A stretch of DNA of 64,000 nt from Candidatus Sumerlaeia bacterium (GCA_038208905.1 JBBQYG010000001.1:7789-71788); one strand, 5' to 3'; numbered from the stretch's first letter, positions 3,772 through 51,578 are shown. Translations and numbers: made by a program. The notes: generated by a model not told the origin, from the letters alone.

Positions 3772-3953
3772 GGCGGAGGACTCCCAATGGATTCTTTCGG
3801 CGTTCGCGGGAAGGCCGTTTGGCCACTCCCCTGTGCCAAGTGAAAGCGTGAGGCGCAATCCCCCTTGGCTCAAGACATTTTCCCCGCGCTTTCGCGATTG
3901 AGGCGGTGCGGCGATGAAGCGAGCCTTTGGACCGGAGCGTGGGCCGGAAGGCC

Positions 3954-5294
3954 ATGACGCAGCACGGGGAGGATGCGTTGCCCAATCAACCCGCGGAAGC
4001 ACCCGCATCGCCGATGACCGGGAGCCGCGTCTTTATCGGCGTGAGCGTATTCCTCCTCCTCTTTCTGGCGGGAATGGCTTGGTACATCCACGCCTCGCGA
4101 AACGCACGGTCCGCATGGCGTCAGGAAGCGCGAGCCGGCGTGAGCGCCAGCGACGCGCCCAATGCCATCGAGCCGATCCTCGACGCGCTGGACCGGGTGG
4201 ACTGGCGGGCAGTGCGCGCGTCGGAGGCGCTGCTCAAGCGCACGGCCACCGAAGGCTGGTCCGAAGAGAGTGCCCAGCTCATCCCGTTGATCGCCAACCA
4301 CCAGCAGGTCCTTTCCCTGGCGATGCGAAGCGCCGCGATCCCGCAATGCCGCCTGCCCCCCACCAGCGATGCCGACGCATCTGTTCCGCGCCCCAACATC
4401 GAGGAATTTCGGCTCCTCTCCTTCCTGCTCGTCGCCAACGGCCGGCGCCTGGCCGCGACCGGCCATGCGGAGGAGGCGGCCCAGCGCCTGATGGACGCGG
4501 CAATTCTGGGTGTGCGATTCACCCGCCCGCACGCGGAGGCGACCTTGACGTCCCACCTGATCGGAATGACGGCGATGGAATTGGCGATCGACGCGCTGGA
4601 CGATGTGATTTCCACCGCGGGGGAAATGCCCGCCGAATGGCGCGGCTCCCTTGCGGCGCAACTGGCGGAACTCGATGGCTCCTACTATCCGATCCGCGGG
4701 GCTTTTCGCGCCGAGGCGGGAATCTATTCCCGCGAGTTGGCGGCGCGCAGCGCCACCCCCGCCGATCTGGCCGAGGGCCTGCAACTGGCCGGCGCGGTCC
4801 TGCCGCAAGGCGCCAACACCGTCGAGGTGGCGGGATCGCTCCACGCGGATGCGCTGACCGTTACGGGCGAGCAGGATCGGGTTTGGGGGGTCCTCGATGG
4901 GATATTGGCAATGCCTCCCGCTCGCCAGCCGCGTATCGACCGGGAGTGGTTCGCCCAGGCGTCGCCCAATAGGCTCGTCCAAATCCAGTTCGCGGAGCTG
5001 ACGCCGCTGATCCTGCGCGAGGGAATCCTGCTGGCGCGGCTGAGGCTGGAACGCGCCGCGCTCCTGCCCGGGGGCGAGGCTCTTCCGGCAGACCCCTTTG
5101 ATGGCGAGCCCCTGCGCGTCGCGGAGGGTCGCATCTGGTCGATTGGGCCGGACCTTCGGGACGACGGCGGGATGGTGGAGTATGCGCCGGGGAAGGGGCT
5201 GGCGAGCGGGGGCGACATGATTGCGACGCGGCGTGCGAGCGGGCAGGCTCCCGGCTTGCCCCATCCCGCGCAACCCGCGAGCCTTCGCCCATGA
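3954..5294 (+). CDS. hypothetical membrane-anchored protein (start uncertain: 3927, 3954 or 4014)
   Basis: 455-aa ORF diverging from the previous gene. N-terminal TM (VFIGVSVFLLLFLAGMAWYI) followed by a large soluble domain. No recognised motif. Confidence 0.45.
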   Translation: MTQHGEDALPNQPAEAPASPMTGSRVFIGVSVFLLLFLAGMAWYIHASRNARSAWRQEARAGVSASDAPNAIEPILDALDRVDWRAVRASEALLKRTATEGWSEESAQLIPLIANHQQVLSLAMRSAAIPQCRLPPTSDADASVPRPNIEEFRLLSFLLVANGRRLAATGHAEEAAQRLMDAAILGVRFTRPHAEATLTSHLIGMTAMELAIDALDDVISTAGEMPAEWRGSLAAQLAELDGSYYPIRGAFRAEAGIYSRELAARSATPADLAEGLQLAGAVLPQGANTVEVAGSLHADALTVTGEQDRVWGVLDGILAMPPARQPRIDREWFAQASPNRLVQIQFAELTPLILREGILLARLRLERAALLPGGEALPADPFDGEPLRVAEGRIWSIGPDLRDDGGMVEYAPGKGLASGGDMIATRRASGQAPGLPHPAQPASLRP

Positions 5295-5611
5295 AACTGC
5301 TCGCGTCCATTCTGAAACCGCTTCGCGCGAAGCGCGCACGCCGCCTGCTCGCGACAGGAGCGCCCCGCCGCATCCGCATCCACTCCGTCACCCCGGACCC
5401 GGAGGAAAACCCGCGGCTCCACCGAATCGCGTTCGAGTTCCTCGACCCGCCGGGCCCCTGGTCGATGCAGTTCTATCAAGCCGAGCCCTTCAAAAGCAAG
5501 CTGCCGGACGCCTTGGCGCCCGGCAGCACGGCATGGTTCTATGAGACCGACGACGGCGCGCGGACCCGTGTGCTCAAGCTGGAGGACGGCACGCCCGTCT
5601 GGCCCAGCTAA
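5291..5611 (+). CDS. hypothetical small protein, translationally coupled to the upstream gene
   Basis: 106-aa ORF whose ATG overlaps the stop of the 3954..5294 gene (ATGA). No recognised motif. Confidence 0.35.
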   Translation: MKLLASILKPLRAKRARRLLATGAPRRIRIHSVTPDPEENPRLHRIAFEFLDPPGPWSMQFYQAEPFKSKLPDALAPGSTAWFYETDDGARTRVLKLEDGTPVWPS

Positions 5612-5617
5612 CGCCGA

Positions 5618-6592
5618 TCAGAGCAGGCCCCGCGGACCATAGCGGCGCTTGCGGGCGCTGTAGGTGCTTTCATCCTCCGGCACGGGCCCCGCAGCAGTGG
5701 GTAACGCATCCAACGGTGGGGCGGGACGCGGAGCGCGCGGGGCGCTGGGGCGCAGCGCGTCGCTCGGCGGGCGATCGGATGGATTCTCGAACTCGTCGTG
5801 AAAGGCGTCCGCGGGACGCGGCCCACCGGCCAGGCCCTCGCGCCGCCACAGGTAGATATAGCCGCGGATGCGAAAGCCCTTATAGTCGGAGACTTCCGAC
5901 TGATAGGTGTTGGGCTTCACGAATCCCTGATAGTGGCTGTTGATGACGGCATCATACCCCTCCAGCGTGTTCTTGGCGAAGAGCTTGGGGTACGTGGTCT
6001 CGTGATAGCGCTTGGCAACCGTCGCCACGAAGTCGGCGATCTGAAGCCCGGCGGAATCCGTTTCGCGCTGGACCATGGGCGAGCCGATGATCGGCTGGGC
6101 CTTGCCGTGGGCGCTGAACACGGAGGAAAACTGAATCTCGGAAATCGTCTGCCGCTCGTCGTCGCGCCCGGGTGGAACGATCAACATCCCTTGGCTGCGA
6201 TTTTCCTTCAGGTGCTGGGAGATCGGCTTCATCAAGTAGTGATACGTCAGCGGGAGGAGCCACTTCGGATGAGCGGGCTTGTCGGTGGTGCGCTTGTCCA
6301 CAACGACAAGGAAGACCTTTATCTCGAGAGCGGCCGCGATCTTCTCCAGTCCCTTGCAATAGGCGACGGCCCAAGGGCGCTCCGCATTCTTGGGATGCAA
6401 CAGGTCGTTGGCGTTTACCCGTGTCTTGCCCGGCTGGTAGTTCGCTTTTTGAAAGGACTTTTGCAAACCATTGATTCGCAGCTGGAGAGTCTTCCACTTA
6501 TCCTCCTGAATGGAAACGCCGGCCAAAGTCCAAAAGGTGCCCGCCGTGGATTCGACGGGCTTGCCCGACTGCTGAAGGAAAATGAGATGCAT
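5618..6592 (-). CDS. DUF3800-like protein with a degenerate N-terminal motif and a Pro-rich C-terminal extension
   Basis: 324 aa. The N-terminal MHLIFLQQSG sits where DUF3800 has YIDESG. The C-terminal GLQIADFVATVAKRY resembles the DUF3800 QxADxxA motif. The body (about 5900-6590) is about 55-57% GC against a roughly 68% background. The last ~80 aa are Pro/Ala/Arg-rich low complexity in high-GC DNA. Confidence 0.5.
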   Translation of the reverse strand: MHLIFLQQSGKPVESTAGTFWTLAGVSIQEDKWKTLQLRINGLQKSFQKANYQPGKTRVNANDLLHPKNAERPWAVAYCKGLEKIAAALEIKVFLVVVDKRTTDKPAHPKWLLPLTYHYLMKPISQHLKENRSQGMLIVPPGRDDERQTISEIQFSSVFSAHGKAQPIIGSPMVQRETDSAGLQIADFVATVAKRYHETTYPKLFAKNTLEGYDAVINSHYQGFVKPNTYQSEVSDYKGFRIRGYIYLWRREGLAGGPRPADAFHDEFENPSDRPPSDALRPSAPRAPRPAPPLDALPTAAGPVPEDESTYSARKRRYGPRGLL

Positions 6593-6918
6593 TCTGGGGA
6601 TTCTCTGTTGGGGGTGGGGGTTGGGCCTGGGGGGGGCCGGTCACTTTTCCAGTTGATGTTCTAACTAAGTCTCTCTCGTACTTGCCCGGGCGAACAAACA
6701 GTCTCTATCATGGAATACCCTGAGAGCAAGTGGAACAATCCGGGCGGTGCAATCTGGTACCCTCTTTTTGCTTCAAAAGGCTCGTTCCGAAGGACTTGCA
6801 CGACACTTGCGCCCGATCCGAGGTCTAAAACTCTCTTGGCGGGGTACTCGCGGCCCGAATCACATCGCGGGTTCCACGCCAGAGGCCCTCAAGATTCAAC
6901 AACGATCTCGGTAAATTC

Positions 6919-8661
6919 ATGGAATTCAGGTCTCAGCCCCTCTCCCAACTCGCCCACTACCCCGCCGTTCGGCTGGTGGGTCTGGGATTTTTCCTTGGTC
7001 TGATCGGAATCATTTCTGCGCGCCTTGTTCTCTTGACGACCCTTGGCCACGACGACGCGGCGGCGCAGGCCCAAGAAAATCTCTATCAGCAACGACGCCT
7101 GACATATCCTCGCGGAAACATTTCGGATCGCAATGGAAATGTTCTTGCGACGAATAAGCGGTGCTACGCGATCCGGTTTTCGCCTTATGGTCAATCCGAT
7201 GCGGTGGCGGGCGAGGCCCTTGATCGCCTTGCCGCGATCCTGGGCTCTCCGTCCCAAGAGGAGAGGGAGAAGATCCTCGCAGCGCGGCCGCGCTGGACAC
7301 GGCACCTGATCGCGTCGGGGCTGGGGCAATCCGATGTGATCCCCTTTATCGAGCGACCCCGCGACTATCCCGGAGTGCGCATCCAGGAAGAGTATGCCCG
7401 CGTGTATGAGCAGCCGGTGGACTTTGCGTTGATCGTCGGTTTCGTGGGGCGCATCCAGCCCGGCCAGGAAGCAGAGTTCCCCCGCCCCCGCTACCTCCCC
7501 GACGACATGGTGGGGCGCAGCGGGATCGAGCGTCAGTATCAGGACCGCCTGGCCGGATCGCCGGGCCGCGAGCGCCTCCAGCGGGACGCGCGCGGCCGCA
7601 GCTTGGCGGAGCCCGACGTTCTGGAGCCAAGTCATCCCGGAGAGGACCTGACCCTCGCACTCGACGCCCGTATTCAGACCGTGGCGATGGACCTCCTCAA
7701 GGGACACAAGGGGAGCATCGTCCTGATGGACGTGGCGACGGGCGAGGTCCACGCGATGGCTTCGCGGCCAACCTTCGACGCGACGAATCCCGGAGCCATG
7801 GAACTGGACGGCGAGCCCGCCGGTTTCGTGAATCTGGCAATGCGCGGCCTGTATCCACCGGGATCGACGCTCAAGGTGGTCTCCGCAATGGCGGCGCTGA
7901 AGGAAGGCGTCTCGCCCGCGGAGAGAATCGACTGCCGCGGAAGCTTTCTGGTCGATGGATGGAGCCGCCCCTTCTGGTGCGCCCACCGCGAGGGCCACGG
8001 CCCCATGGGGATGGCCGACTCGCTCAAGGCGAGCTGCAACGTGTACTACTACACGATGGCCAAGCGGTTGGGGCCGCGCCCGCTGTTCGAGGCGGGCCGC
8101 GAATTCGGCCTGGGCCGTGCCACGGGGATCGACCTTCCCGGCGAGGCGGGGGGCCAGCTCAGCACGATGCCGAATCCCGCTTCGGGAGAGACGACGAACT
8201 TGTATATCGGGCAGGGCTCCATGCTGGCCACTCCCCTGCAAGTTGCGCGGATGTATGCGGGGCTTGCCAACGGCGGCGTGCTGCCGGTGCCCCGCGTCGT
8301 CATCGGGGGATCGGCGCCAGCGACGGGCGGCGAACGGCTGCCGATGACCGAGGCGCAGCGTGCCGAGATAAACCGCGGTCTATACGGCGCCGTGAACGAG
8401 CAGGGCGGCACCGCCGCCAAGGCGGGGATACCGCGCGCGTGGGGAGTGTGCGGGAAAACCGGCACGGCGGAGAACGCCACCGGGGGCGTGGATGCGTGGT
8501 TTGCCGGATTCTTCCCGCAGGAGAATCCACGGTTCGCCTTTGCCGTTCACGTGGAAGAAGCGGACGGCCACGGCGGCGACGTGGCAGGGCCTATCGCGCG
8601 TGAACTGATTCGCGCGGTGCTTGCGCCGACGGACCAGAAGAGCGTGGCCGCGCTGCCCTAG
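6919..8661 (+). CDS. mrdA: Penicillin-binding protein 2 (peptidoglycan D,D-transpeptidase)
   Basis: 580 aa. N-terminal TM anchor. PBP dimerisation region. Transpeptidase motifs SxxK (GSTLKVV), SxN (SCN) and KTG (KTGTA). Confidence 0.85.
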   Translation: MEFRSQPLSQLAHYPAVRLVGLGFFLGLIGIISARLVLLTTLGHDDAAAQAQENLYQQRRLTYPRGNISDRNGNVLATNKRCYAIRFSPYGQSDAVAGEALDRLAAILGSPSQEEREKILAARPRWTRHLIASGLGQSDVIPFIERPRDYPGVRIQEEYARVYEQPVDFALIVGFVGRIQPGQEAEFPRPRYLPDDMVGRSGIERQYQDRLAGSPGRERLQRDARGRSLAEPDVLEPSHPGEDLTLALDARIQTVAMDLLKGHKGSIVLMDVATGEVHAMASRPTFDATNPGAMELDGEPAGFVNLAMRGLYPPGSTLKVVSAMAALKEGVSPAERIDCRGSFLVDGWSRPFWCAHREGHGPMGMADSLKASCNVYYYTMAKRLGPRPLFEAGREFGLGRATGIDLPGEAGGQLSTMPNPASGETTNLYIGQGSMLATPLQVARMYAGLANGGVLPVPRVVIGGSAPATGGERLPMTEAQRAEINRGLYGAVNEQGGTAAKAGIPRAWGVCGKTGTAENATGGVDAWFAGFFPQENPRFAFAVHVEEADGHGGDVAGPIARELIRAVLAPTDQKSVAALP

Positions 8662-11735: not shown

Positions 11736-11833
11736 GAACGGTTACTTCCCAAGGCGTGGAGTCACCGGGATCCCGGCGCGCCTGTGAGGTGGATTGATTG
11801 GCGGATGCCCGCCACCGGCGCAACCCCAAGCAT

Positions 11834-11880
11834 CGAATTGTAGTATTTGGTCACAAATGTATCATTGGTTACAAATTGGC
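11834..11880. promoter_or_regulatory. AT-rich direct-repeat element in the divergent promoter region; candidate metal-repressor operator
   Basis: The only AT-rich stretch in a roughly 220-bp GC-rich intergenic region. It reads gaattgtagtatttggtcacaaatgtatcattggttacaaattgg, i.e. two 12-mers TTGGTCACAAAT / TTGGTTACAAAT 6 nt apart, about 80 nt upstream of the binding-protein gene ATG. Confidence 0.3.
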
Positions 11881-11958
11881 TTGCCATCCCCCCGCCAATG
11901 GCCCCACACACATCGCGTCGCCGGTGGAACGGTGGCAGACTCCACCGAGGCCCGGTCC

Positions 11959-12903
11959 ATGCACTTTCCTCCCGCCCTTCGCGCACTGATCTGCTTCCTC
12001 GCCCTCGCGGCGTTGCTGGGGGCCGCACCGCTCCGCGCGGAGTATGCGGGTGCCTATCCCTTCAAGGCCGTGGCGACCACCGGAATGGTCGGCGACATGG
12101 TCCGCCGGATCGCGGGCGAGCGCGCCACCGTGACCGACCTGATGTCGGCGGGGATCGACCCCCACCTCTACAAGCCCGGCCGCGGCGACCTGATCGCGCT
12201 GAAGGGCGCGGACATCGTCTTCTACAGCGGACTGAAGCTGGAGGGCCAGATGTCGGAAATTCTCGCCGGCCTCTCCACCAGCAAGCCCAGCATCGCCATC
12301 GCCGAGGCGATCCCATCCGCCAGGCTCCTGGGTGACGACCATCATCACGACCCCCATGTTTGGATGGACGCGGCCCTGTGGCTCCTGGCGGCGGAGAAGG
12401 CCCATGCGGGGCTCGTCACCTTCGACCCGAAGGGGAAGACGATCTACGAGGCGAATATGGAAATCCTGAAGAAGGATATGGCGGCCCTCGATACGCGTGC
12501 CCGCGAAGCCATTGCTTCGATCCCCAAGGAGGCCCGCGTGCTCGTCACGGCACACGACGCCTTCAGCTATTTCGGACGCGCCTATGACATCGAAGTGATG
12601 GGCATCCAGGGCATCTCCACCGAGTCCGAGGCGGGCCTGCAAGACATCAACCGCATGGTGGAACTGCTCGTGTCGCGCAAGATTCCCGCGGTCTTTGTGG
12701 AGAGCAGCGTCAGCGAAAAGAACGTCCGCGCCCTCGTCGAAGGCGCCGCCGCCCGCGGCCACAAAGTCGCCATCGGCGGCTCGCTCTTCTCCGACGCCAT
12801 GGGCAAGGCCGGCACGCCGCAGGGCACGTACATCGGCATGATTGATCACAACGTGGAGACGATTGTGAAAGCGTTGAAGGGGAAGGAAGGGAATGGGGAA
12901 TAG
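11959..12903 (+). CDS. Metal (Zn/Mn) ABC transporter substrate-binding protein, cluster A-I (ZnuA/TroA/MntC family)
   Basis: ATG at 11959 follows an in-frame upstream extension. Signal peptide (ALICFLALAALLGAAPLRA). The DPHLYKP and DPHVWMD motifs are typical of the family. His-rich loop GDDHHHDPH as in ZnuA. Confidence 0.85.
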   Translation: MHFPPALRALICFLALAALLGAAPLRAEYAGAYPFKAVATTGMVGDMVRRIAGERATVTDLMSAGIDPHLYKPGRGDLIALKGADIVFYSGLKLEGQMSEILAGLSTSKPSIAIAEAIPSARLLGDDHHHDPHVWMDAALWLLAAEKAHAGLVTFDPKGKTIYEANMEILKKDMAALDTRAREAIASIPKEARVLVTAHDAFSYFGRAYDIEVMGIQGISTESEAGLQDINRMVELLVSRKIPAVFVESSVSEKNVRALVEGAAARGHKVAIGGSLFSDAMGKAGTPQGTYIGMIDHNVETIVKALKGKEGNGE

Positions 12904-13021: not shown

Positions 13022-13834
13022 ATGCCCCTCCCCGGAATCCGCCCCAGCATCCCCGCCACACCCCGCGACGACCACGCGGAGGATGCGCCGTTGTCTATAC
13101 ACGACCTGACAGTGGCGTATCGGCGGAAGCCGGTGCTGTGGGACGTGGACCTGGACCTGCCGGAGAAGCGCCTGATCGCGCTGGTGGGGCCGAATGGCGC
13201 GGGGAAGAGCACGCTGCTGAAGGCCGCGCTGGGGCTGGTGCCCGCCGTGTCGGGCGATGTGAAGGTCTATGGGCGCGACTACAAGGAGCAGCGCAGGCTG
13301 GTGGCCTATGTGCCGCAGCGGGAGTCTGTGGATTGGGACTTCCCCGTGAACGCACTGGATGTTGTGGCGATGGGCCGCTATCGGCGCATCGGATGGCTGA
13401 GGCCCGTGGGTCGCGCGGACCGCGAGGCGGCGATGGTGGCGCTGGGCAAGGTGGGGATGGCGGACTATGCGCAGCGCCAGATCAGCCAGCTTTCCGGGGG
13501 CCAGCAGCAGCGGGTGTTCCTCGCCCGCGCCCTGGCTCAGGAGGCGCGCCTGTACCTGATGGACGAGCCCTTCGCGGGCGTGGATGCCGCGACGGAGAAG
13601 GCTATCGTGGCGCTGCTCGACGACCTGCGCGAGCAGGGAAACACGGTGCTTGTTGTACATCATGATATACAGACCGTGCCCGCGTATTTCGACTATGTGG
13701 TGATGCTGAACATGCGCGTGGTGGCCCATGGTCCCGTTGAGGACGTGTTCACGGAGGAGAATCTGCGCAAGACATACGGCGGCAAGCTGACGCTGCTGAG
13801 CGCCGCCGCCGAGGCGCTGGCGGGCAGGCGATGA
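13022..13834 (+). CDS. Metal ABC transporter ATP-binding protein (ZnuC/TroB family)
   Basis: Walker A GPNGAGKST. ABC signature LSGGQQQRV. Walker B LYLMDEP. H-loop. 4-nt overlap with the downstream permease gene. Confidence 0.9.
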   Translation: MPLPGIRPSIPATPRDDHAEDAPLSIHDLTVAYRRKPVLWDVDLDLPEKRLIALVGPNGAGKSTLLKAALGLVPAVSGDVKVYGRDYKEQRRLVAYVPQRESVDWDFPVNALDVVAMGRYRRIGWLRPVGRADREAAMVALGKVGMADYAQRQISQLSGGQQQRVFLARALAQEARLYLMDEPFAGVDAATEKAIVALLDDLREQGNTVLVVHHDIQTVPAYFDYVVMLNMRVVAHGPVEDVFTEENLRKTYGGKLTLLSAAAEALAGRR

Positions 13835-15201
13835 TTTCGAGCCTGGCCGCCGCCAGCCACGCGGAAATCGTTCCTCCGATGGAGGCGCTGTGGCGGGTGC
13901 TGTCGCTGCAGGACTACAATACGCGGGTCGTCGTGATTGGCACAACGCTGCTGGGCCTCGCATCGGGGCTGGCGGGGGTGTTCCTGCTGCTGAGGAAGCG
14001 CTCGCTCCTAAGCGACGTGGTCAGTCACTCCGCCCTTCCCGGAATTGGCATCGCGTTCATCGCGATGACGATGATGGGCGGCGGCGGCAAGAACACCCTT
14101 GGCCTGCTGCTTGGCGCCACGGCGACCGCGCTGCTGGGCATTGTCGCGGTCGGCGCCATCCGTCGGTTCACGCGCCTGAAGGACGATGCGGCGCTGGCGA
14201 TCGTGCTGGGGACGTTCTTCTCCGCGGGGATCGCGCTGACCGGCGTGGCGGCGCGCATGCCTGGCGCGGGAGCGTCGGGGCTGGAGAGCTGGATCTACGG
14301 CAAGACCGCGTCGATGCTCTTCTCCGACGCGCTGCTGATCGGAATCACCGGCCTGCTGGTGACGCTGGGGACGGTGCTGCTCTTCAAGGAGCTGGCGCTG
14401 CTATGCTTCGACGAGGACTTCGCCGCGACGCAGGGTTGGCCCGTGGGGCTGCTGGACATGTTGCTGATGGGCGCGACGGTGGCCGTCACGGTGATCGGCT
14501 TGCAGGCGGTGGGGCTGATCCTGGTGGTGGCGCTCCTGATCATACCGCCGGCGGCGGCGCGGCTGTGGACGCATCGGCTGCGCCCGCTTGCCGCGATCTC
14601 GGCGGTGATCGGCGGGCTCGCCTGCCTGGTGGGGAGCGCCCTCAGCGCGCTGATGGAGAATCTCCCCGCGGGCGCGATCATCGTGCTCTCCGCGGCGGCG
14701 CTGTTCTGCGTCAGCCTCGTCTTCGGCACAGAGGGCGGGATGCTCCACCGAGGCCTCGGCGCGTGGACGCTGCGCAAGCGCGTCGGTCGCCAGCATCTGC
14801 TCCGCGCGCTGGCGGAGCTTGCAGAGCAATCCGGCAAGGACGTCGCCTCCTTCTCCACGATCCGTCACCGGCGATCGTGGCACACCGCGACGGTGCGGGG
14901 ACTCCTCGCAAGCGCCATGAAGGATGGGCTGGTGGAGCGCGTGGATGCGCGCCATTGGCGCCTGACGGAATCCGGAGTGGCGGAAGCCCGCCGCGTTGTC
15001 CGCAATCACCGCCTCTGGGAATTGTTCCTGATCACCCACGCCGACATCGCGCCCTCCCACGTGGATCGCGACGCCGACATGATCGAGCACATCCTGGACG
15101 AGCGAATGATCGCGCAGCTTGAGGGATTGATGGCCGGGGAGAATCGCGGCCACGTGCCGCCGAGCCCGCACGCATTGCGTCCGGCGGAGGGCACGGCCTG
15201 A
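13831..15201 (+). CDS. Metal ABC transporter permease (ABC-3/ZnuB-TroC family) fused to a C-terminal DtxR-family metal-dependent repressor domain (YtgC-YtgR-like)
   Basis: 456 aa. The N-terminal roughly 300 aa are a typical ABC-3 permease with 8-9 TM segments. The C-terminal roughly 140 aa read LLRALAELAEQSGKDVASFSTIRHRRSWHTATVRGLLASAMKDGLVERVDARHWRLTESGVAEARRVVRNHRLWELFLITHADIAPSHVDRDADMIEHIL. This matches a DtxR/MntR winged-HTH plus the RRHRLxExFL dimerisation region. Confidence 0.85.
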   Translation: MISSLAAASHAEIVPPMEALWRVLSLQDYNTRVVVIGTTLLGLASGLAGVFLLLRKRSLLSDVVSHSALPGIGIAFIAMTMMGGGGKNTLGLLLGATATALLGIVAVGAIRRFTRLKDDAALAIVLGTFFSAGIALTGVAARMPGAGASGLESWIYGKTASMLFSDALLIGITGLLVTLGTVLLFKELALLCFDEDFAATQGWPVGLLDMLLMGATVAVTVIGLQAVGLILVVALLIIPPAAARLWTHRLRPLAAISAVIGGLACLVGSALSALMENLPAGAIIVLSAAALFCVSLVFGTEGGMLHRGLGAWTLRKRVGRQHLLRALAELAEQSGKDVASFSTIRHRRSWHTATVRGLLASAMKDGLVERVDARHWRLTESGVAEARRVVRNHRLWELFLITHADIAPSHVDRDADMIEHILDERMIAQLEGLMAGENRGHVPPSPHALRPAEGTA

Positions 15202-16505
15202 TGTGGACGACCTTCGACACCGCGATCGTGGCCACGGGCGCCATCGCGGCGATGTCCTGCGCGCTGCCGGGATGCTTCCTTCTGCTGAGGCGCAGCAGCA
15301 TGATGGGCGACGCGATCAGCCACACGGTGCTGCCGGGAATTGCGGCGGCATACCTGCTGACGGGATCGCGGGACAGCCTGCCGATGTTCGTCGGCGCCAT
15401 CGTGGTGGGCGTCCTGACGGCGTTGCTGATTCAGGCGGTGCAGCGCGGCGGCCAGGTGGAGGAAGGCGCCGCGATGGGCGTGGTGTTCACGTCGCTCTTT
15501 GCCCTCGGCCTCGTGATGATCCGTCGCGCGGCGGACCATGTGGACCTCGACCCGAGCTGCGTCCTCTATGGCGCGCTGGAACTGGCGCCGCTGGATACCG
15601 TCTCCGTCGGCGGCTGGGACATTCCCCGCGCAGCAATTTCGAGCGGCGCGCTCCTGCTGATCAACGCGGTCTTCATCGGCATCTTCTACAAGGAGCTGAA
15701 GCTCTGTGCGTTCGACCCGGGCTATGCGCGGACACAGGGCATTCGCGTCGGCGCGCTGAATCTGGCGCTGATGACGCTGATCGCCGCGACCACCGTGGCC
15801 GCGTTCGAGAGCGTCGGCAGCATCCTGGTGATCGCGATGCTCATCGTGCCCGCCGCCACCGCCTACCTGATGACGGATCGGCTGCCGATCATGCTGGTGG
15901 GGAGTCTCGTCTTCGGCGCGCTCTCCGCCGCGCTCGGCCACGGCATGGTGGTGTGGATGGTCGATGGATTGGGACTGCCCGACACCAGCTCCGCGGGGAT
16001 GACCGGCGTGGCGGCGGGGATCCTCTTCGTCGCGATGGCGCTGGGTTCCCCGAAGTATGGTATCCTGATGCGCGCGGCCCGTTCGCTCCAGCTCGCCCTC
16101 GGCATCGCGCGCGACGATGTGCTCGCCTACCTGTACCGCCACGGCGAACTTGATCCACTGGGCACCCGCCCGCGCCCCACGGCAAGCAACCTCCGCGAGG
16201 CCATCCGTGCCCGCGTCGCGGTCAGCGCGGCGATCTGGCAACTGAGGAATCGGCGCCTGCTGGCGGCGGAGGGCGGCGGAATCGCCCTCACCCCCGCTGG
16301 CCGCGACACGGCCCGGGGCCTTGTCCGGTCGCATCGGCTGTGGGAGACGTATCTGGTGGAGAAATTGGGGCTCCGACCCGATCACGTGCATTCCACGGCG
16401 GAAGTTCTGGAGCACATCACCGACCGCACCATGCGCGAAAGCCTGAGCCGCGAGACCGGCGACGCCCCCCGGGACCCCCACCGCTCCAGCATCCCCCCAG
16501 AGTGA
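15201..16505 (+). CDS. Second metal ABC transporter permease fused to a C-terminal DtxR-family domain
   Basis: 434 aa. Permease core followed by ...SNLREAIRARVAVSAAIWQLRNRRLLAAEGGGIALTPAGRDTARGLVRSHRLWETYLVEKLGLRPDHVHSTAEVLEHITD, which is DtxR-like. ATG overlaps the upstream TGA (TGATG). Confidence 0.85.
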   Translation: MWTTFDTAIVATGAIAAMSCALPGCFLLLRRSSMMGDAISHTVLPGIAAAYLLTGSRDSLPMFVGAIVVGVLTALLIQAVQRGGQVEEGAAMGVVFTSLFALGLVMIRRAADHVDLDPSCVLYGALELAPLDTVSVGGWDIPRAAISSGALLLINAVFIGIFYKELKLCAFDPGYARTQGIRVGALNLALMTLIAATTVAAFESVGSILVIAMLIVPAATAYLMTDRLPIMLVGSLVFGALSAALGHGMVVWMVDGLGLPDTSSAGMTGVAAGILFVAMALGSPKYGILMRAARSLQLALGIARDDVLAYLYRHGELDPLGTRPRPTASNLREAIRARVAVSAAIWQLRNRRLLAAEGGGIALTPAGRDTARGLVRSHRLWETYLVEKLGLRPDHVHSTAEVLEHITDRTMRESLSRETGDAPRDPHRSSIPPE

Positions 16506-16902: not shown

Positions 16903-17997
16903 CTAAACCACCGGATCTTCCGCCTCGTTCGTGTGGGCCATCATCTTGACGCGAAGTTCGTCGGGATAGGTGGCGCGCTCGAGGGCGACATCTCCGTTGA
17001 CCTGACCGGCCTTGTAGAGGCGGAACAGGAAATCGTCCATGGTCATCATGCCCATCTTGGCGGAGATCTGGATCTGGGAGAAGAGGCGGTTGGTCTTGTG
17101 CTCGCGGATGAGCGAGGCGACGGCGGGGACGTTGTGGAGGATCTCGTAGGCGGCGCGGCGGCCCTTGCCGGACGCGTGGGGGACGAGCGTTTGGGCGATG
17201 ATCGTCTTGAGCGCCACGGAGAGCACCGCGCGCACCTGTTCCTGTTGGTTGGCTGGGAAGGCGTCGATCATGCGGTCAACGGTGGAGGATGCGTCGATGG
17301 TGTGCAGCGTTCCGAACACCAAGTGGCCTGTTTCCGCGGCGTGGAGGCCGGCTTCCATCGTTTCCAAATCTCGCATTTCACCCACCAGAATCACGTCGGG
17401 GTCCTGACGCAGCGCGCCGCGGAGCGCGTAGGAGAAGCTGGGCGTGTCCACGTGGATTTCGCGATGGGTGACGATGGCCTTCTTGTGGGGGTGGATGTAC
17501 TCGATCGGGTCCTCGATGGTGATGATGTGGACGTAGCGGTTCACGTTGATGTAGTCGATCAGCGTCGCCAGCGTGGTCGTCTTGCCGGAGCCGGTGGGGC
17601 CGGTGATAATGCAGAGACCGCGGTGGGCGTGGAGCACGTTGATGATCGATTCCTTGGGAAGGCCAAGGACCTCGAACGGCAGCAGCCGCGAGGGAATGAG
17701 TCGCATGACGATGCTGATGTTGCCGCGCGCGCGGAACACGGCCACGCGGAAACGGGCCTGGTCGGAGTAGGAGTAGGCGAAGTCGGCGGAGCCGTGCTCC
17801 TGAAGCATCTGCTGATAGCGCGGCGGCGTGATTTCGCGCATCAGGCGCTCGGAATCGTCGGGCGTCAGGATGTCGGGATCGACCACGTCCAAGGTGCCGC
17901 CAAGCCGCATGACGGCGGCCTTGCCGACGGAGATGTGAAGGTCGGAGCCATCGCGCTCGACGATGATCTTCAGCATCTCGTTGATGTCCATTGCCAT
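16903..17997 (-). CDS. pilT: Type IV pilus retraction ATPase PilT
   Basis: Start taken at MAMDINEML... (ATG 17995-17997). Walker A GPTGSGKTTT. Asp box. Walker B. His box (ETGHLVFGTLHT). The long ORF-track N-terminal extension is non-coding-like. Confidence 0.9.
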   Translation of the reverse strand: MAMDINEMLKIIVERDGSDLHISVGKAAVMRLGGTLDVVDPDILTPDDSERLMREITPPRYQQMLQEHGSADFAYSYSDQARFRVAVFRARGNISIVMRLIPSRLLPFEVLGLPKESIINVLHAHRGLCIITGPTGSGKTTTLATLIDYINVNRYVHIITIEDPIEYIHPHKKAIVTHREIHVDTPSFSYALRGALRQDPDVILVGEMRDLETMEAGLHAAETGHLVFGTLHTIDASSTVDRMIDAFPANQQEQVRAVLSVALKTIIAQTLVPHASGKGRRAAYEILHNVPAVASLIREHKTNRLFSQIQISAKMGMMTMDDFLFRLYKAGQVNGDVALERATYPDELRVKMMAHTNEAEDPVV

Positions 17998-18278
17998 GGG
18001 TGAAGCGGCTCCTTGGCGGCGGATGCGCCGCGCGGACGGTTGGTTGGGCGTGCCCAATGGCCAGAGGATGGAACGCCCGCTCGAGGCTGTCAATGCGAGG
18101 TGTGGGTTGGGGGATGGGGCATCCACCAGCGATTTGGGATCACTGGAAAGTGTCGAGTTATCCAGGTCACCATGGTCATTAAGGTCATATAAGCGTCGTC
18201 CCGCGCCATCCTCGCGCTTGCCCACCCGCCCACCGACTCCCACGCTTTCTCCGACAGTCAATCCCCGGAGGAACCCTC

Positions 18279-20153: not shown

Positions 20154-21251
20154 ATGCTGTCCGTTCGCCTCGATGACCTCCTCGTGGAGATGGTTGAAAA
20201 GGGCGCGTCCGACCTGTTTCTGAAGGCAGGCGTCGGCCCCCACATCCGCGTGGATGGCAAAATTCAGATGATGGACTATGGGGAGTTGACCCTGGAAGAG
20301 ACCCAGGAAATCGCCTATGGCATGATGACCGAGGAGCAGATCGAGCGCTTCGAGCGAATCCCCGAAATGGATCTGGCGCTCGGCGTGCGGGGCGTGGGCC
20401 GCTTTCGCGTGAACCTGTTCCGCCAGCGCGGCTCCATCGCGATGGTCTTCCGCCACATCAAGTCGCCGGGATTCAGCTTCGAGGATCTGATGCTCCCCGA
20501 TACCGTGCGCCAGCTGGCCGAGAAGAACCGTGGCCTCGTTCTGGTGACGGGCACCACCGGCTCCGGCAAGTCCACGACGCTGGCCGCGATGATCAACCAC
20601 ATCAACACGATCCGCAAGTGCCACATCGTGACCGTGGAAGACCCCATCGAATTCCTCCACGCCGACCGCGAGGCGATCATCAGCCAGCGCGAGGTGGGCT
20701 TCGACACCAAGTCCTTCTCCGACGCGCTGCGCCACGTCCTTCGCCAGGCGCCCGACGTGATTCTGATCGGCGAGATGCGCGACCTGGAGACGGTGCAGAC
20801 CGCCATCGCCGCGGCGGAGACGGGTCACCTCGTCCTGTCCACGCTCCACACCATCGACGCCGTGCAGACGGTGGAGCGCATCATCAACTTCTTCCCCGCC
20901 TATCTCCACGCGCAGATCCGCATGGAAATGGCCCTCGGCCTGCAGGGCGTCATCAGCCAGCGACTTCTTCCCCGCAAGCGCAGCAACGGTCGCGTCCCCG
21001 CGGTGGAGACACTTGTCGCCACGCCCTTCATCAAGAAGCTCCTCAACGAGGGGAAGACCCTCGAAATCCTTCCCGCCATCGAGGAAGGCGGGCACTGGGG
21101 AATGCAGAGCTTCAACCAGGCGCTCCACACCCTGATCCAGAAGGACCTGGTGGCGATGGACATGGCGATGACCTATGCCACGAGTCCCGAGGAACTCCGC
21201 CTCATGGTCGAGGGCATCACCAGCGGCGTCCGCACGATGAGGGCGCGGTAA
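20154..21251 (+). CDS. PilT/PilU-family type IV pilus ATPase (second paralogue)
   Basis: 365 aa. Walker A GTTGSGKSTT. His box ETGHLVLSTLHT. About 45-50% identical to the pilT at 16903..17997. Confidence 0.9.
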   Translation: MLSVRLDDLLVEMVEKGASDLFLKAGVGPHIRVDGKIQMMDYGELTLEETQEIAYGMMTEEQIERFERIPEMDLALGVRGVGRFRVNLFRQRGSIAMVFRHIKSPGFSFEDLMLPDTVRQLAEKNRGLVLVTGTTGSGKSTTLAAMINHINTIRKCHIVTVEDPIEFLHADREAIISQREVGFDTKSFSDALRHVLRQAPDVILIGEMRDLETVQTAIAAAETGHLVLSTLHTIDAVQTVERIINFFPAYLHAQIRMEMALGLQGVISQRLLPRKRSNGRVPAVETLVATPFIKKLLNEGKTLEILPAIEEGGHWGMQSFNQALHTLIQKDLVAMDMAMTYATSPEELRLMVEGITSGVRTMRAR

Positions 21252-32697: not shown

Positions 32698-35600
32698 TTA
32701 GTCCTTCACGACGTTACCGGTGAGGAAGATGAGGAGCGTAATCTTGTCCTCGGTGTTCTGGGTCCGGTTGAATAGGTACTTGCCGATGAAGGGAATGTCG
32801 CGGAGAATCGGGACGCCGGACTCGAGGTCCTGCGTGCGCTCCGACCGCCATCCACCGAGGACCACCGTGCCGCCGTCCTTGATGCGGGCCCTGGTGGTCA
32901 GTTCCTTGCGGATGCGGCCCACGTCGGCGAAGCGGCTGGCCTGGGGAAGCGTGGTGGCGGGAGCGAGTGCCGACACCGCAGAGGGATCAAGGGTGACGAT
33001 CTGACCGATGTTCTGATCGATGTCCTCCATATTCACGTCGATATCCAGCGTGATGTTGCCCGCGCGGGTGACGTTGGGGGTGATCGAGAGATCGACAGGC
33101 GTCAGGCCCGTGACCAAGCTGAGCTGCTGGTTGCCGCCGCCGGTCGCGCCGCCACCAGTTGCTCCCTCGATGGGGCGGGGCGAGCCGAACGAGCGCTCGA
33201 CGATGAAGTCGGCGGTTTCGGTATTCAGCACCGTGACGCGGGGTCCGTTGACGACGTTGATGATTCCCTGGGCCTCGAGCACGCGAAGCGTGAACGAGAT
33301 GGGGGAGCTGCCGTTGCTGACCAGGTAGTTGAAGACGGTCGAGCCCTTGAGGAGGTTTGCGGCCTCGTTCCCCTCGACGGGGGCCTCGAAGGGGCTGCGG
33401 AACTCGTCGCGGTCCTGAGCGAATCGCGAACCGAGAAGAGAATCCGAGAGATCGAAGCCATCGGTCAGGTTGCCGATCGTGAACTCCGGCTTGATTTCCT
33501 TGGCCTTGTTGCTGGCCACCTCGACGAACTTGATCTCGATATCGACCTGAAGCGTCGGGATGTCCAGCGTGCGGACCCAGAACTCCACGCGGCGGAGCTC
33601 TTCGATGCTGTCGTACTCGACGAAGATGGCGTTCAGGTTCTCGATCTCGACGATGGTGAGGCCGGTTTCGGCGCGAACCTGATCGCGCTGGGCCTCGACG
33701 TCGGCCTGAGCCTGATCCTGCACTTGGGTGTCGCCGCCGCCGGTGTTTCCGCCGGGGACGAAGCGGATGGTCAAACGGACTCGGCCTTCGCCGGGCGTGT
33801 TGGAGGGCTTGATGTCATCGGCGACGATCTCGAAGTCCTCGACGAATTGCGAGCGGAACTCCTCGATGGTGACATCCTGGCTGGTGGTGCCGGTGCGGAC
33901 GACCATCTCCACGCTGTCGTCGTTATCGTCCACGGTGTCATTCTCGTTCACGCGCGTAACCCGGAAGTTGCCGCCGTTGAAGTCGAAGTCGTCCTGGACG
34001 CCAAGCGTCTGATTGACCTCGGTGCCGCTGGACGCGCTGGAATCCGCGCTGGCGCTGATTCCGAGGAAGGACTCGATCTGGCCGGCCAGATCGGCGGCAT
34101 TGGCGTGATCGAGGAAGATGATCTTGCTGCGCCGACGCGCATCGATCTGGGGAAGGTTCTCGATGAAGTTCTGCACCGTGGCGATGCGGTCGGCCGTGTC
34201 GGTGATGGTGAGCTGGAGGGAGGCCGGGTCGTACCAGAGGCGACGGCCCTCGGCCTCCGCCTTGCTGTAGCCGTCCTGCGAGTAGAGGAGCGTCTCGACG
34301 ACCGAGCGCACCTGATCCGCGAAGGCGCGGGCAAGGTCGGGGTTGTCGGCGAACTGGGTGATCGGCGTCAGGTTGAAGGTGGCGATGGTGAGCTCATTGC
34401 TGTAGAACTTGGCGAGGAAGTTCTGGTCCTGCAGGATATTGCGGACCTTCTGAACGTTGTCGGCGGTGTCCTTGATGATAAGGGTGCTGCCCTCGATGAT
34501 GAGCTTGCGCTCGGGGTTGAAGGGCTGGAGGTCGTCGGCGACGAGGAGGGCGGAGAGGAGCGCCTTGATCTCGGGGGCCTTGGACTCGTCGATCTCGTAG
34601 CTATCGAAGATGAGCTGCGTGCGCTGCTGGCCGCGCAGGCTCTCCTGAATCTTGCGGATCTTGGAGATGTTGGCCTCGGAATCCGTGACGATCAGCAGGT
34701 TGCGGGCGGTATCGAGGAGGATCTCCTGGCCGAGGAGGCTGGGAACGCCCTTCTCACCGTAAAGCAGGCGCGGAAGCGTGCCGCCCTCGATGAGGGACTC
34801 GATGGTGGATATCTGGTCGGGAGCGAGGCGGAAGACCTCGGTGCGCAGGTCGGGTTCGATGATAACGATGCTCTTGCCCGGTTCGCGGCGCCAGCGGAGG
34901 CCGATGGGAAGCAGCGCGGAATCGAGCACCTCGTGCAGGGCCACGTCTTCCCAGGCGCCCTCGATCTTGGCATTCACTTCGCCGACGATGGAAAAGTCGA
35001 TGCCCGAGAGCACGCGCAGGTTCTGGAGGAAATCCGCGAGGGACATGGCGCCGATGGTCCGCAGGGGAATCGGCGTGTTCATCTTCTCGACGGCGTCGGC
35101 CTCACTCTGCTCAAGGTTCCGCTTTGCGGCCTCGTTGGCCTGGAGGGCGTTGTACTCGGCTTCCGTGCCGGCGAGGTAGGAATCGGGCTTGAGGAACGAA
35201 GGATCGAGGTCCTTGGCATCCAGCCAGCGCTGACGGGCGCGGGCGAGTTCACCCTTCTTGTAGAGGGAAACGCCCTCGTCATAGGCCATCTCGGCCTGAC
35301 GGGTGCGCTCCTTGGAGAGGCGTTCGACATCGGCCTTGGCCGCGGCTTCCTGTGCCTTGACGGCGGCATCGGCCTTGGCAACCGCGGCTGCGGGAGTGGG
35401 GGCGGTCGCTTCGACAGGGGGAACCGGGGTGGGGGCCGGTGTGAACTGGGCGGCGGGGGCGTTGGCAAAGGGGCTGTCGGGGACGCCGGGCGCGGGGGCA
35501 GGCGTGGGCGCCGGAGCGGAAGCGAAGGGGCTGTCGGGAACGGTCGCGGCGGCAGCCGACACGGGGCGTTCGATGACGACAGGAGGCGCGGGAGTGGGAG

Positions 35601-36960
35601 CAGGCGTCGGGGCGGGCGTGGGCTTGGGAGCCTCGGCCACCACGGCGGTCTTCTTGACGGCCTCGGCGGCCGCCTTCTTGTCGTCTTCTGCCTTCTTGGC
35701 GGCAGCGGCGAGGGCCTTCTTCTCTTCTCCGGCCTTCTTGACTGCGGCCGCGTCGGCGATCTTCTTGTCCTCCGCAGCCTTCTTCGCGGCAGCGGCTTCG
35801 CCGACCTTCTTATCGTCCTCGTCCTTCTTTGCGAGAGCGGCTGCCTTCTTGTCGTCTTCCGCCTTCTTCGCCGCAGCGGCCTTCTTATCGGCGTCCACGG
35901 ACTTCATGGCGGAGGAGCTTGCTGCTCCCAGCGACTTGTTGGCCGACTCGAGGCCCTTCTTGGCCTTGGAGTTTGTGGGCGCGGAGGCGAGCACGGCCGC
36001 GTAGGCCTTGGCGGCGCCATCGTAGTTCTTCGCCTTAAGCAGGCGATCGGCGGCGGCGAGGTCCTCCCCGAGCTTCCGCTCCTGAGAGGCGGCGACGAAC
36101 TTCTTCTCCTCGGAGCCAATCTTGGCGAGGAGGGAAGTGGCGGGCTTGTTCTGCTTATCGAGCGCGAAAACGCGGCCGACGGTCTGGCGGGACTTGTCGA
36201 ACTGGTTGGCCTTGAGTTCCGCGCTGGCGGTCTTCAGGAGGCCATCGATCGCGGTCTTGTTCTTGGCGGCGTTGAAGGCGGATTCCTCTTTGGCAATCCG
36301 GGCGGAGAGCTTATCGAGGTCATTCTTGAAGAGCCCCTTGGCGGTCTCGCGCGCGGCGGCCTCGTTCCGGCGGGCCTCGTCGAAACGCTTCTCCTTGGAG
36401 GCGCGTTCGGCGGCCTTGATCCGGTCGCCCACAGCCTTCTCGAGGGATTCTTCGAGGCCCTTGGTGCGCTCCTTCTCGATGCGCTCGCGAAGGCTCTTGG
36501 CGCGTGAGTTGGCCGGGTCGAGTTCCAGTGCCTTGGTGACCTCGACGGCGGCTTCGTCATAGCGGCCTGCATTGCGGCGGTCGTCCGCGGAACGCAGGAT
36601 GCTGGACACTCGCTCTGCGCGGGCGCTGGCGACGGCGGCTTGCTCGGCCGCGGCGATATCCTTGGCGAGCTGGTCGAGACCGGGCGCCTTGGGATCGGCG
36701 GCGCGCGCCCTCTCGAGGAACTCGCGGGCGGCGGAAAACTGCTCCTTCTTCAACTCGGCGCGAGCCGACTTGAGGAGCTGTTCCGCCTGAGCGGTGCCAT
36801 TGGTTTTCTTGGCATCGGTCTGGCTGGACTTGGATGCGGTGTCGTTGGGGGCCGATTGGATCGCCACCGGTGCCAGCATGAGGCTGGCAGCCAGAGTGGC
36901 TTGGATAGCCACGCCTCCGGTTAGCTTTCGTAGGCAACGCCTGCTGCTCTGCCGATTCAT
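32698..36960 (-). CDS. pilQ: Giant type IV pilus/T2SS-type secretin (PilQ-like) with a long N-terminal TPR/coiled-coil and Ala-Lys-rich repeat region
   Basis: 1420 aa. Signal peptide. The first ~420 aa are TPR-like/coiled-coil. A low-complexity (KKAAEDKK)n region is followed by a PTPAPTPAP linker. The C-terminal secretin domain ends ...GGWRSERTQDLESGVPILRDIPFIGKYLFNRTQNTEDKITLLIFLTGNVV. It is downstream of the pilM-N gene. Confidence 0.8.
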   Translation of the reverse strand: MNRQSSRRCLRKLTGGVAIQATLAASLMLAPVAIQSAPNDTASKSSQTDAKKTNGTAQAEQLLKSARAELKKEQFSAAREFLERARAADPKAPGLDQLAKDIAAAEQAAVASARAERVSSILRSADDRRNAGRYDEAAVEVTKALELDPANSRAKSLRERIEKERTKGLEESLEKAVGDRIKAAERASKEKRFDEARRNEAAARETAKGLFKNDLDKLSARIAKEESAFNAAKNKTAIDGLLKTASAELKANQFDKSRQTVGRVFALDKQNKPATSLLAKIGSEEKKFVAASQERKLGEDLAAADRLLKAKNYDGAAKAYAAVLASAPTNSKAKKGLESANKSLGAASSSAMKSVDADKKAAAAKKAEDDKKAAALAKKDEDDKKVGEAAAAKKAAEDKKIADAAAVKKAGEEKKALAAAAKKAEDDKKAAAEAVKKTAVVAEAPKPTPAPTPAPTPAPPVVIERPVSAAAATVPDSPFASAPAPTPAPAPGVPDSPFANAPAAQFTPAPTPVPPVEATAPTPAAAVAKADAAVKAQEAAAKADVERLSKERTRQAEMAYDEGVSLYKKGELARARQRWLDAKDLDPSFLKPDSYLAGTEAEYNALQANEAAKRNLEQSEADAVEKMNTPIPLRTIGAMSLADFLQNLRVLSGIDFSIVGEVNAKIEGAWEDVALHEVLDSALLPIGLRWRREPGKSIVIIEPDLRTEVFRLAPDQISTIESLIEGGTLPRLLYGEKGVPSLLGQEILLDTARNLLIVTDSEANISKIRKIQESLRGQQRTQLIFDSYEIDESKAPEIKALLSALLVADDLQPFNPERKLIIEGSTLIIKDTADNVQKVRNILQDQNFLAKFYSNELTIATFNLTPITQFADNPDLARAFADQVRSVVETLLYSQDGYSKAEAEGRRLWYDPASLQLTITDTADRIATVQNFIENLPQIDARRRSKIIFLDHANAADLAGQIESFLGISASADSSASSGTEVNQTLGVQDDFDFNGGNFRVTRVNENDTVDDNDDSVEMVVRTGTTSQDVTIEEFRSQFVEDFEIVADDIKPSNTPGEGRVRLTIRFVPGGNTGGGDTQVQDQAQADVEAQRDQVRAETGLTIVEIENLNAIFVEYDSIEELRRVEFWVRTLDIPTLQVDIEIKFVEVASNKAKEIKPEFTIGNLTDGFDLSDSLLGSRFAQDRDEFRSPFEAPVEGNEAANLLKGSTVFNYLVSNGSSPISFTLRVLEAQGIINVVNGPRVTVLNTETADFIVERSFGSPRPIEGATGGGATGGGNQQLSLVTGLTPVDLSITPNVTRAGNITLDIDVNMEDIDQNIGQIVTLDPSAVSALAPATTLPQASRFADVGRIRKELTTRARIKDGGTVVLGGWRSERTQDLESGVPILRDIPFIGKYLFNRTQNTEDKITLLIFLTGNVVKD

Positions 36961-51178: not shown

Positions 51179-51526
51179 ATGGACCACGACCACAAGAATC
51201 ACCCCCACCAGCACGGCCCAGGCTGTGGACACCCCGCCGTCGTCCACGGCGACCACGTGGACTACCTCCACAACGGCCACCTGCACCACGTGGACGGCAC
51301 CAAGGTGGAGGAACACGCCCTGGACATCACCCCCCGCAACCCCTCCGACTGCGAAGCCACCAGCCTCCACACCCCGCACCACACCCACGGCCCCACCTGC
51401 GGCCACGAAGCCGTCCCCCACGGCGACCACACCGACTACGTCGTCAACGGACGCCTCCACCACCCCCACGACGGACACTGCGACGATCATGGTCCGGTGG
51501 TGGTGTTGAAGAATATGGCGCCGTGA
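51179..51526 (+). CDS. Small His/Cys-rich putative metal-binding protein with an internal tandem duplication
   Basis: Two ~28-aa repeats: HGPGCGHPAVVHGDHVDYLHNGHLHHVDG and HGPTCGHEAVPHGDHTDYVVNGRLHHPHDG, plus a C-terminal HCDDHGP. An alternative upstream start lies at 51119. Confidence 0.5.
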   Translation: MDHDHKNHPHQHGPGCGHPAVVHGDHVDYLHNGHLHHVDGTKVEEHALDITPRNPSDCEATSLHTPHHTHGPTCGHEAVPHGDHTDYVVNGRLHHPHDGHCDDHGPVVVLKNMAP

Positions 51527-51565
51527 GGGGCGCTGCACTTTTCGCTTCATAGTCGAAAGCGCCCG
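51527..51565. terminator. Bidirectional terminator-like hairpin between convergent genes
   Basis: gggcgc tgcacttttcgcttcatagtcgaaa gcgccc with an inner cttttcg/cgaaag pairing. Flanked by T-runs on both strands. Confidence 0.4.
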
Positions 51566-51578
51566 GATTTCGAAATTC

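Follow-up and report, generated by a model that had tools for sequence, protein, structure and literature searches.

DUF3800 is a widespread protein family whose genes occur next to retrons, to Cas12a2/a3 and to eleven or more orphan noncoding RNA (ncRNA) motifs. To our knowledge, its function has never been demonstrated by experiment. The family has an RNase H2-like fold (PMC7736814, PMC10910872) and is defined by two motifs, an N-terminal DE and a C-terminal QxxD, which have been interpreted by DEDD analogy with RNase H2 (PMC7736814); Altae-Tran et al. described DUF3800 as an RNase H fold 'with a catalytic rearrangement' (PMC10910872). DUF3800 genes are often associated with defence systems and mobile elements (PMC13594972, PMC10910872, PMC7736814), and their association with ncRNA motifs (DUF3800-I to DUF3800-XI, drum and skipping-rope) is frequent (PMC5737381). 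Such surroundings characterize the family, but neither kind is obligatory.

A divergent relative of this family was analysed in a 64,000-nucleotide stretch of DNA from a Candidatus Sumerlaeia bacterium (GCA_038208905.1, JBBQYG010000001.1:7789-71788), referred to below as the window; all positions are counted from its first letter. An earlier reading of the window, made from the sequence alone (the sequence-only reading), had drawn attention to the gene and its low GC content.

Gene layout and base composition

The DUF3800-derived gene (5618..6592, -) encodes 324 amino acids plus a stop codon and starts MHLIFLQQSG. The assignment was based on the open reading frame (ORF), its 72 homologues and the hhalign match described below. 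Plus-strand ORFs over the gene (e.g. 5798-6664) were rejected, since the minus-strand product has these homologues and a confident fold. The product was divided into a globular core with a predicted RNase H2-like fold (residues 1-251; 5840..6592, -; net charge +12, pI 9.65) and a predicted disordered C-terminal tail (residues 252-324, with the stop codon 5618..5839, -). Within the 45 nt immediately ahead of the start codon is a C-rich tract (6597-6640, read on the gene's strand) with eight consecutive C residues. There is no obvious Shine-Dalgarno sequence ahead of the gene, and several orthologous leaders are also pyrimidine-rich.

On the other side of a divergent intergenic region of 326 bp (6593..6918, GC 0.552), which separates the two start codons, lies the gene for a 580-residue class B penicillin-binding protein (6919..8661, +), identified as PBP2/MrdA-like by its Pfam PBP_dimer and Transpeptidase domains. 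The TIGR03423 (pbp2_mrdA) model scored 422.7 bits, under its cut-off of 455, and FtsI models scored far lower (117 bits); the SxxK (STLK), SxN (SCN) and KTG motifs were seen in the translation. The sequence-only reading had placed the DUF3800-like gene upstream of an orphan mrdA. The gene does adjoin an mrdA-like gene that lacks rodA and mreBCD company; the two are on divergent strands, however, and the DUF3800-like gene is not upstream in an operon sense.

A convergent ORF of 106 aa (5291..5611, +) ends 6 bp from the stop codon of the DUF3800-like gene. It is a conserved neighbour in some loci, with tblastn matches of 54-60% identity, equally placed relative to the gene, in L004-L007, L011, L012, L014 and L022. 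A 455-aa ORF (3927-5294, +) overlaps it by ATGA and is conserved in two related loci, compared with eight for the 106-aa ORF. Neither ORF has a family match in Pfam or in the PADLOC, NCBIfam and PHROGs scans. These last three scans covered the DUF3800-like protein and the two neighbours downstream of it and were uninformative: there was no PADLOC match and the sole PHROGs match had an E value of 0.029.

The intergenic region contains no conserved block or operator across 15 loci aligned with MAFFT, and its folding on both strands was no better than that of shuffled sequence (z = 1.28 and 0.07). Rfam searches of 5000-7500 at E <= 1 returned no DUF3800-type RNA, the lone match being a chance one to RpsF_leader (E = 0.62). 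At 11 orthologous loci, searched at gathering thresholds, neither a DUF3800-type family (the eleven motifs, drum and skipping-rope) nor any other Rfam family was found.

Base composition was calculated in 1 kb segments (mean GC 0.657, sd 0.027 across the window) and as a 300-nt profile. The lowest-GC kilobase of the 64 kb is 6196-7195 (0.553), and in the finer profile a GC of 0.54-0.61 is held from ~5.85 to ~7.3 kb. The dip noticed in the sequence-only reading is real and is the deepest in the window, on a background of about 66% rather than the ~68% given there. Three segments make it up: the gene core, with a GC of 0.58, the intergenic region (0.552) and the initial ~95 codons of the PBP2 gene (0.558). 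For the third segment (codons 1-95; 6919-7203, +), its amino acids and the codon usage of the window would predict 0.638; the shortfall at the 5' end of the PBP2 gene lies at synonymous sites and adds to the dip.

Expected GC values and log-likelihoods were computed using the window's own codon table. GC at third codon positions (GC3) is 0.782 in the DUF3800-like gene (0.79 in the core) and 0.783 in the PBP2 gene, the mean for genes of the window being 0.826 (sd 0.048). The GC deficit of the gene sits at codon positions 1 and 2, where the core has values of 0.56 and 0.39, respectively. The observed core GC of 0.576 compares with 0.594 expected from the amino acids under host codon usage (difference -0.02), and the synonymous codon choice of the gene is ordinary (per-codon log-likelihood z = -0.24); its codon usage is native. 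At the three orthologous loci measured, orthologue GC was 0-5 points under that of the locus. The low GC of the patch is a by-product, because the core is rich in Lys, Asn, Ile, Tyr and Phe and is joined by an AT-richer intergenic region and the PBP2 5' end. The proposal that a foreign gene had been inserted here is contradicted by the ordinary codon choice, by a GC3 like that of the PBP2 gene and by an observed GC near expectation.

An insertion of prophage or defence origin also found no support in the surroundings. No tRNA gene is present in the window, the gene is not flanked by direct repeats, and scans for tRNAs, repeats, promoters and terminators gave no insertion scars. Neither an integrase nor a defence gene was found near the gene, and its neighbourhood was not of the mobile-element, defence, retron or CRISPR type, the neighbours being housekeeping genes. 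The locus is a clear annotation case of a strong local GC dip without horizontal transfer.

The region is housekeeping chromosome, including ZnuABC, ABC-2 permeases, PolA, Rho, CoaE, DnaJ/GrpE and pilus genes. Pfam scans of ~35 of the 48 putative ORFs, a set covering nearly every long one, detected no member of the rodA or mreBCD families. ZnuA (11794-12903) and an ABC ATPase (13022-13834) are followed downstream by two ABC-3 (Znu/Tro-type) permeases (13831-15201, + and 15201-16505, +), both with a Fe_dep_repr_C domain (DtxR-type, metal-binding/dimerisation) at the C-terminus. The pilus genes (16903-18261, -; 20154-21251, +; 32698-36960, -; 37711-39657, -) comprise two PilT-like T2SSE ATPases around an EPSP_synthase-family gene, a 1420-aa secretin and a 648-aa PilM/FtsA-like protein. 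The second-lowest GC patch is at ~51400-52700 (1 kb minimum 0.578); 'ORFs' near it (45122-45505, 45602-45934 and 51902-52246) show GC2 > GC3 and are unlikely to be real genes.

Core homology, catalytic positions and tail

The Pfam profile PF12686 (DUF3800) matched the window protein with 19.1 bits (E = 0.0023), short of the gathering score of 21 and without covering the N-terminus. The same profile was matched by 39 of 57 orthologues at E <= 0.01 (best 1.8e-6). When the clade profile was aligned using hhalign to a profile of 16 Pfam-confirmed DUF3800 proteins, the probability was 99.9% (E = 2.1e-33) over 241 columns. An exhaustive phmmer search of 1.84 billion cluster representatives yielded only 24 clusters at E <= 1e-3, the distant matches being Pfam-confirmed DUF3800 proteins with scores of 35-68 bits; the match to one bona fide member, P0078, had an E value of 1.8e-11. 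Judged in this way, the likeness to DUF3800 is weak for the single window sequence and strong at the profile level, and the homology, which is secure, extends along the whole core. The sequence-only reading had been right to call the gene a divergent DUF3800 relative, despite the subthreshold Pfam score.

The structure was modelled with AlphaFold2 using 78 sequences (mean pLDDT 87.4, with ~95-98 for residues 1-250). Foldseek matched the model to RNase HII (1eke, E = 3e-5), and its best viral match was a phage DUF3800 protein (E = 5.8e-10, target-normalised TM-score 0.70). A profile search of PDB sequences retrieved no solved relative. The core is predicted to have an RNase HII/HIII-like (RNase H2-like) fold.

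Catalytic positions were compared in a joint alignment. Bona fide DUF3800 proteins have [IVL]-D-[ED]-S-G where the window protein has Q7-Q8-S-G (QQSG, residues 7-10; 6563..6574, -), in place of the 'D-E-S/A-G' of DUF3800 and RNase H2. Q7 is invariant in the 57 orthologues, and position 8 is Gln in most and His in a few. The mid-protein 'vvfD' Asp, nearly invariant in the DUF3800 set (D143 of P0078), is the third catalytic Asp position, and the residue aligned with it here is P140 (6173..6175, -; alignment A1). The QxxD motif is kept as Q184-I-A-D187 within GLQIADFVATVAKRY (residues 182-196; 6005..6049, -) and is nearly invariant in the clade. The replacement of DESG by QQSG reported in the sequence-only reading is borne out by these alignments, in which a further catalytic Asp, at the position of P140, is also gone. 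In total, only one of four canonical carboxylates, D187, is kept; the other three have been replaced (D to Q7, E to Q8 and D to P140), and the replacements are fixed across the clade. In the clade alignment 45 columns are invariant, with polar or charged residues in many of them; H66, D99, K100, D104, R143, E146, D187, D214 and N218 are among the invariant polar residues.

The exchange of Asp or Glu for Gln is the substitution used to build substrate-trapping RNase H mutants. The presence of an invariant Gln at a D/E site is a hint that the groove may still be used for binding. By DEDD analogy (PMC7736814) and from the DUF3800 alignment, canonical two-metal catalysis would not be possible, because the DEDD-equivalent positions read Q7, Q8, P140 and D187.

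A paralogous clade with 34-42% identity to the main clade occurs in the same Sumerlaeia metagenome-assembled genomes, as in the pairs P0071 with L009 (GCA_020831705.1) and P0074 with L001 (GCA_033764015.1). Its first site reads H[PTA]SG or AESG and its second site is Pro or another non-acidic residue; D187 is gone (QVSA, QVAS or QMAR) and the fold-defining core is kept. This paralogue (clade B: L026-L029, L030 and L032) is more degenerate than the main clade, with all canonical carboxylates lost, and in some genomes its gene is flanked by those for a GT4 glycosyltransferase and an MBOAT acyltransferase. A cell-envelope role suggested by this context was dropped because another member is located between a proton-antiporter subunit and a subtilase.

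The tail of the window protein (73 residues: 21% Pro, 15% Ala, 12% Arg; GC 0.73-0.74) is predicted to be disordered, with pLDDT values of 45-69. Every one of the 56 full-length orthologues has a tail, 20-139 residues long; 55 of these tails are acidic (mean charge -4.4), in contrast to the uniformly basic orthologue cores (mean charge +10.6, pI 9.6). The motif VAE[DE]xxxY[GAS] was found in 22 of the 56 tails, 3-17 residues before the C-terminus. The window copy of this motif is VPEDESTY (residues 304-311; 5660..5683, -), and the window sequence VPEDESTYSARKRRYGP closely parallels VAEEESQYARRKR of P0003 and VAEEPLVYGLRKRR of P0002. Among 67 tails, that of the window protein is the most Pro-rich (21% versus a median of 6%) and it is nearly neutral.

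These comparisons indicate that the tail is genuine and not an accidental read-through, because the orthologues have tails and 22 of 56 carry the C-terminal motif paralleled in the window copy. Of the earlier description of this segment, the disordered Pro/Arg-rich character stands, and the idea of a reading frame running on into host DNA does not. The Pro/Ala/Arg composition and the high GC of the tail may be attributed to GC-biased mutational pressure on a weakly constrained disordered segment.

Distribution and synteny in Candidatus Sumerlaeota

A word-indexed search returned 72 homologues, of which every taxon-labelled one is from Candidatus Sumerlaeota or Sumerlaeia; 68 of the 72 are 52-79% identical to the window protein over the first ~250 residues. 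A set of 20 loci was assembled with the clade alignment as query, taking one genome per GTDB species. The titles of 18 loci name Ca. Sumerlaeota or Sumerlaeia and those of the other two only 'bacterium'.

Searches by tblastn with the window PBP2 showed a head-to-head arrangement with the gene in 14 of the 20 species-level loci (13 plus L002). The synteny comparison proposed in the sequence-only reading thus placed an orthologue at the same position in most of these loci, contrary to its expectation of an inserted gene. The outer neighbours vary: a Ser/Thr kinase in L001, TPR and secretin genes in L002, a gamma-glutamyltranspeptidase in L005 and a TPR protein in the window. The DUF3800-like gene is the sole conserved neighbour of PBP2 in the loci of this lineage. 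In none of the loci examined does rodA or mreBCD adjoin PBP2, and an mrdA set apart from these genes, which had been regarded as unusual, is the rule here. In CAYFUR010000004.1 (L004/L007) the neighbouring PBP2 was called only as a 116-aa fragment, and tblastn covers residues 1-470; a near-identical JGI contig (L005) has the gene intact, and the break is probably an assembly frameshift, possibly a pseudogene.

No PBP2 is nearby in the remaining six loci, five of which (L016, L018-L020 and L024) form one clade in a neighbour-joining tree, nested inside the PBP2-linked loci. In this clade a PilT-like ATPase is conserved downstream. The PilT-like ATPase is also near the gene in L002, the earliest-branching locus. 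The PBP2 linkage looks ancestral and lost once or twice, because L002 has both PBP2 and the PilT-like ATPase and five of the six loci without the linkage form one clade.

In the 14 genome pairs compared, identity was 52-76% for the core and 39-54% for PBP2, the core value being higher in every pair. The pattern of homologues indicates that the DUF3800-like gene is old, vertically inherited and found only in Candidatus Sumerlaeota.

Interpretation and comparison with known systems

The reading that we prefer, with a probability of roughly 0.6, is that of a chromosomal, vertically inherited Sumerlaeota gene whose ancestor encoded a DUF3800 nuclease of RNase H2 fold and whose product has been domesticated into a non-catalytic role. 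On this view the former active-site groove would still accommodate a ligand of the ancestral kind, RNA or an RNA/DNA hybrid, or else a protein partner, with no capacity for two-metal cleavage. The acidic, aromatic-tipped tail would recruit a partner or fold back on the basic surface, and the divergent promoter region in common with PBP2 would couple expression to cell-wall elongation. With moderate confidence, we infer a non-catalytic binder of nucleic acid or protein that is co-expressed with PBP2.

Two alternatives concern the origin and chemistry of the protein. Horizontal acquisition of a prophage or defence-island DUF3800 gene, inserted by mrdA and read through into host DNA, is barely credible: the window's lowest-GC kilobase is here, DUF3800 genes are often linked to mobile elements or defence (PMC13594972, PMC10910872, PMC7736814) and the tail composition is unlike that of the core, but codon usage and GC3 are native, orthologues are found beside PBP2 at the same position across the phylum, tails and their common C-terminal motif are family-wide, and PADLOC matches, tRNAs, integrases and flanking repeats are all lacking. 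We consider it unlikely that the protein is still an enzyme, with a site rewired from clade-invariant residues (e.g. D99, E146, D187, R143 and H66) and a new substrate. The loss of three of four canonical carboxylates, one of them to proline, argues against such an enzyme, as does the sister paralogue clade, in which D187 is lost too while the fold-defining core is kept; the very strong conservation (45 invariant columns, many polar or charged), a Q7 that is invariant rather than drifting and the published 'catalytic rearrangement' of the DUF3800 RNase H fold (PMC10910872) all agree with it.

The other alternatives turn on the neighbouring PBP2 gene. The adjacency may be inherited synteny without functional coupling, because the linkage is absent in six of the 20 loci and the paralogues lie in unrelated contexts. 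In its full form, in which the protein has an unrelated housekeeping role and ancestral synteny is slowly decaying, this explanation is possible but somewhat doubtful. It agrees with L002, which has PBP2 and the PilT-like ATPase, later lineages keeping one or the other, and with the heterogeneous paralogue contexts; it sits less well with a pair that has persisted at 39-54% PBP2 identity while every other neighbour was reshuffled. That persistence of the head-to-head order in 14 of 20 loci, the basic core and the unusually low GC at synonymous sites of the PBP2 5' region would all suit a transcriptional or post-transcriptional regulator of the PBP2 gene that binds the intergenic DNA or the mrdA 5' leader. 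Such a role is nevertheless improbable: the protein has no recognizable DNA-binding domain, the intergenic sequence is neither conserved nor unusually structured, and one clade has lost the linkage while keeping the protein highly conserved. A more specific proposal, for which the odds are similarly long, is a catalytically dead, essential cytoplasmic factor that was domesticated from a mobile-element-type DUF3800 nuclease and acts together with the elongation-specific PBP2; it might, for instance, bind an RNA or the short N-terminal cytoplasmic segment of PBP2, with the acidic aromatic-tipped tail serving as a tether. If true, this would be a lineage-specific cell-wall regulator on an RNase H2 fold in this phylum.

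Under the preferred reading of a domesticated non-catalytic protein, a clade that is phylum-wide, lacks the catalytic carboxylates and has a core conserved above PBP2 would represent a second, non-nucleolytic use of the fold. A natural 'substrate-trap' version (D/E to Gln) could help to find what DUF3800 proteins bind. The practical weight is otherwise modest, the organism being uncultured.

The closest described system is PF12686 DUF3800, which occurs stand-alone, associated with type VII retrons and as TPR-DUF3800 with Cas12a2/a3. The window protein resembles it in the whole ~250-residue core, which is homologous by profile comparison and predicted to have the same fold, in the retained S9-G10 and QxxD and in its similar length. 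It differs from PF12686 proteins in lacking the N-terminal D-E (QQ here) and the mid-protein Asp (P140). Unlike them, the Sumerlaeota clade is confined to one phylum, chromosomal and syntenic with PBP2, outside mobile, defence, retron or CRISPR contexts; Rfam found no DUF3800-type ncRNA at the window locus or the 11 orthologous loci, and the Sumerlaeota proteins carry an acidic disordered tail. Identity to type 2 RNases H (RNase HII, HIII and H2A) is 8-13%, and the DEDD tetrad of these enzymes is reduced to one Asp here. Inactivated RNase H folds are known in the Prp8 RNase H-like domain, the PIWI domain of dead Argonautes and Med13, with which there is no specific homology beyond the superfamily fold; these reside as domains in large eukaryotic or archaeal machines, in contrast to the window protein, which is small, stand-alone and bacterial. 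Compared with all of these, the protein is a new, phylum-restricted DUF3800 variant that is catalytically degenerate, strongly conserved and long linked to PBP2, with a basic core and an acidic tail.
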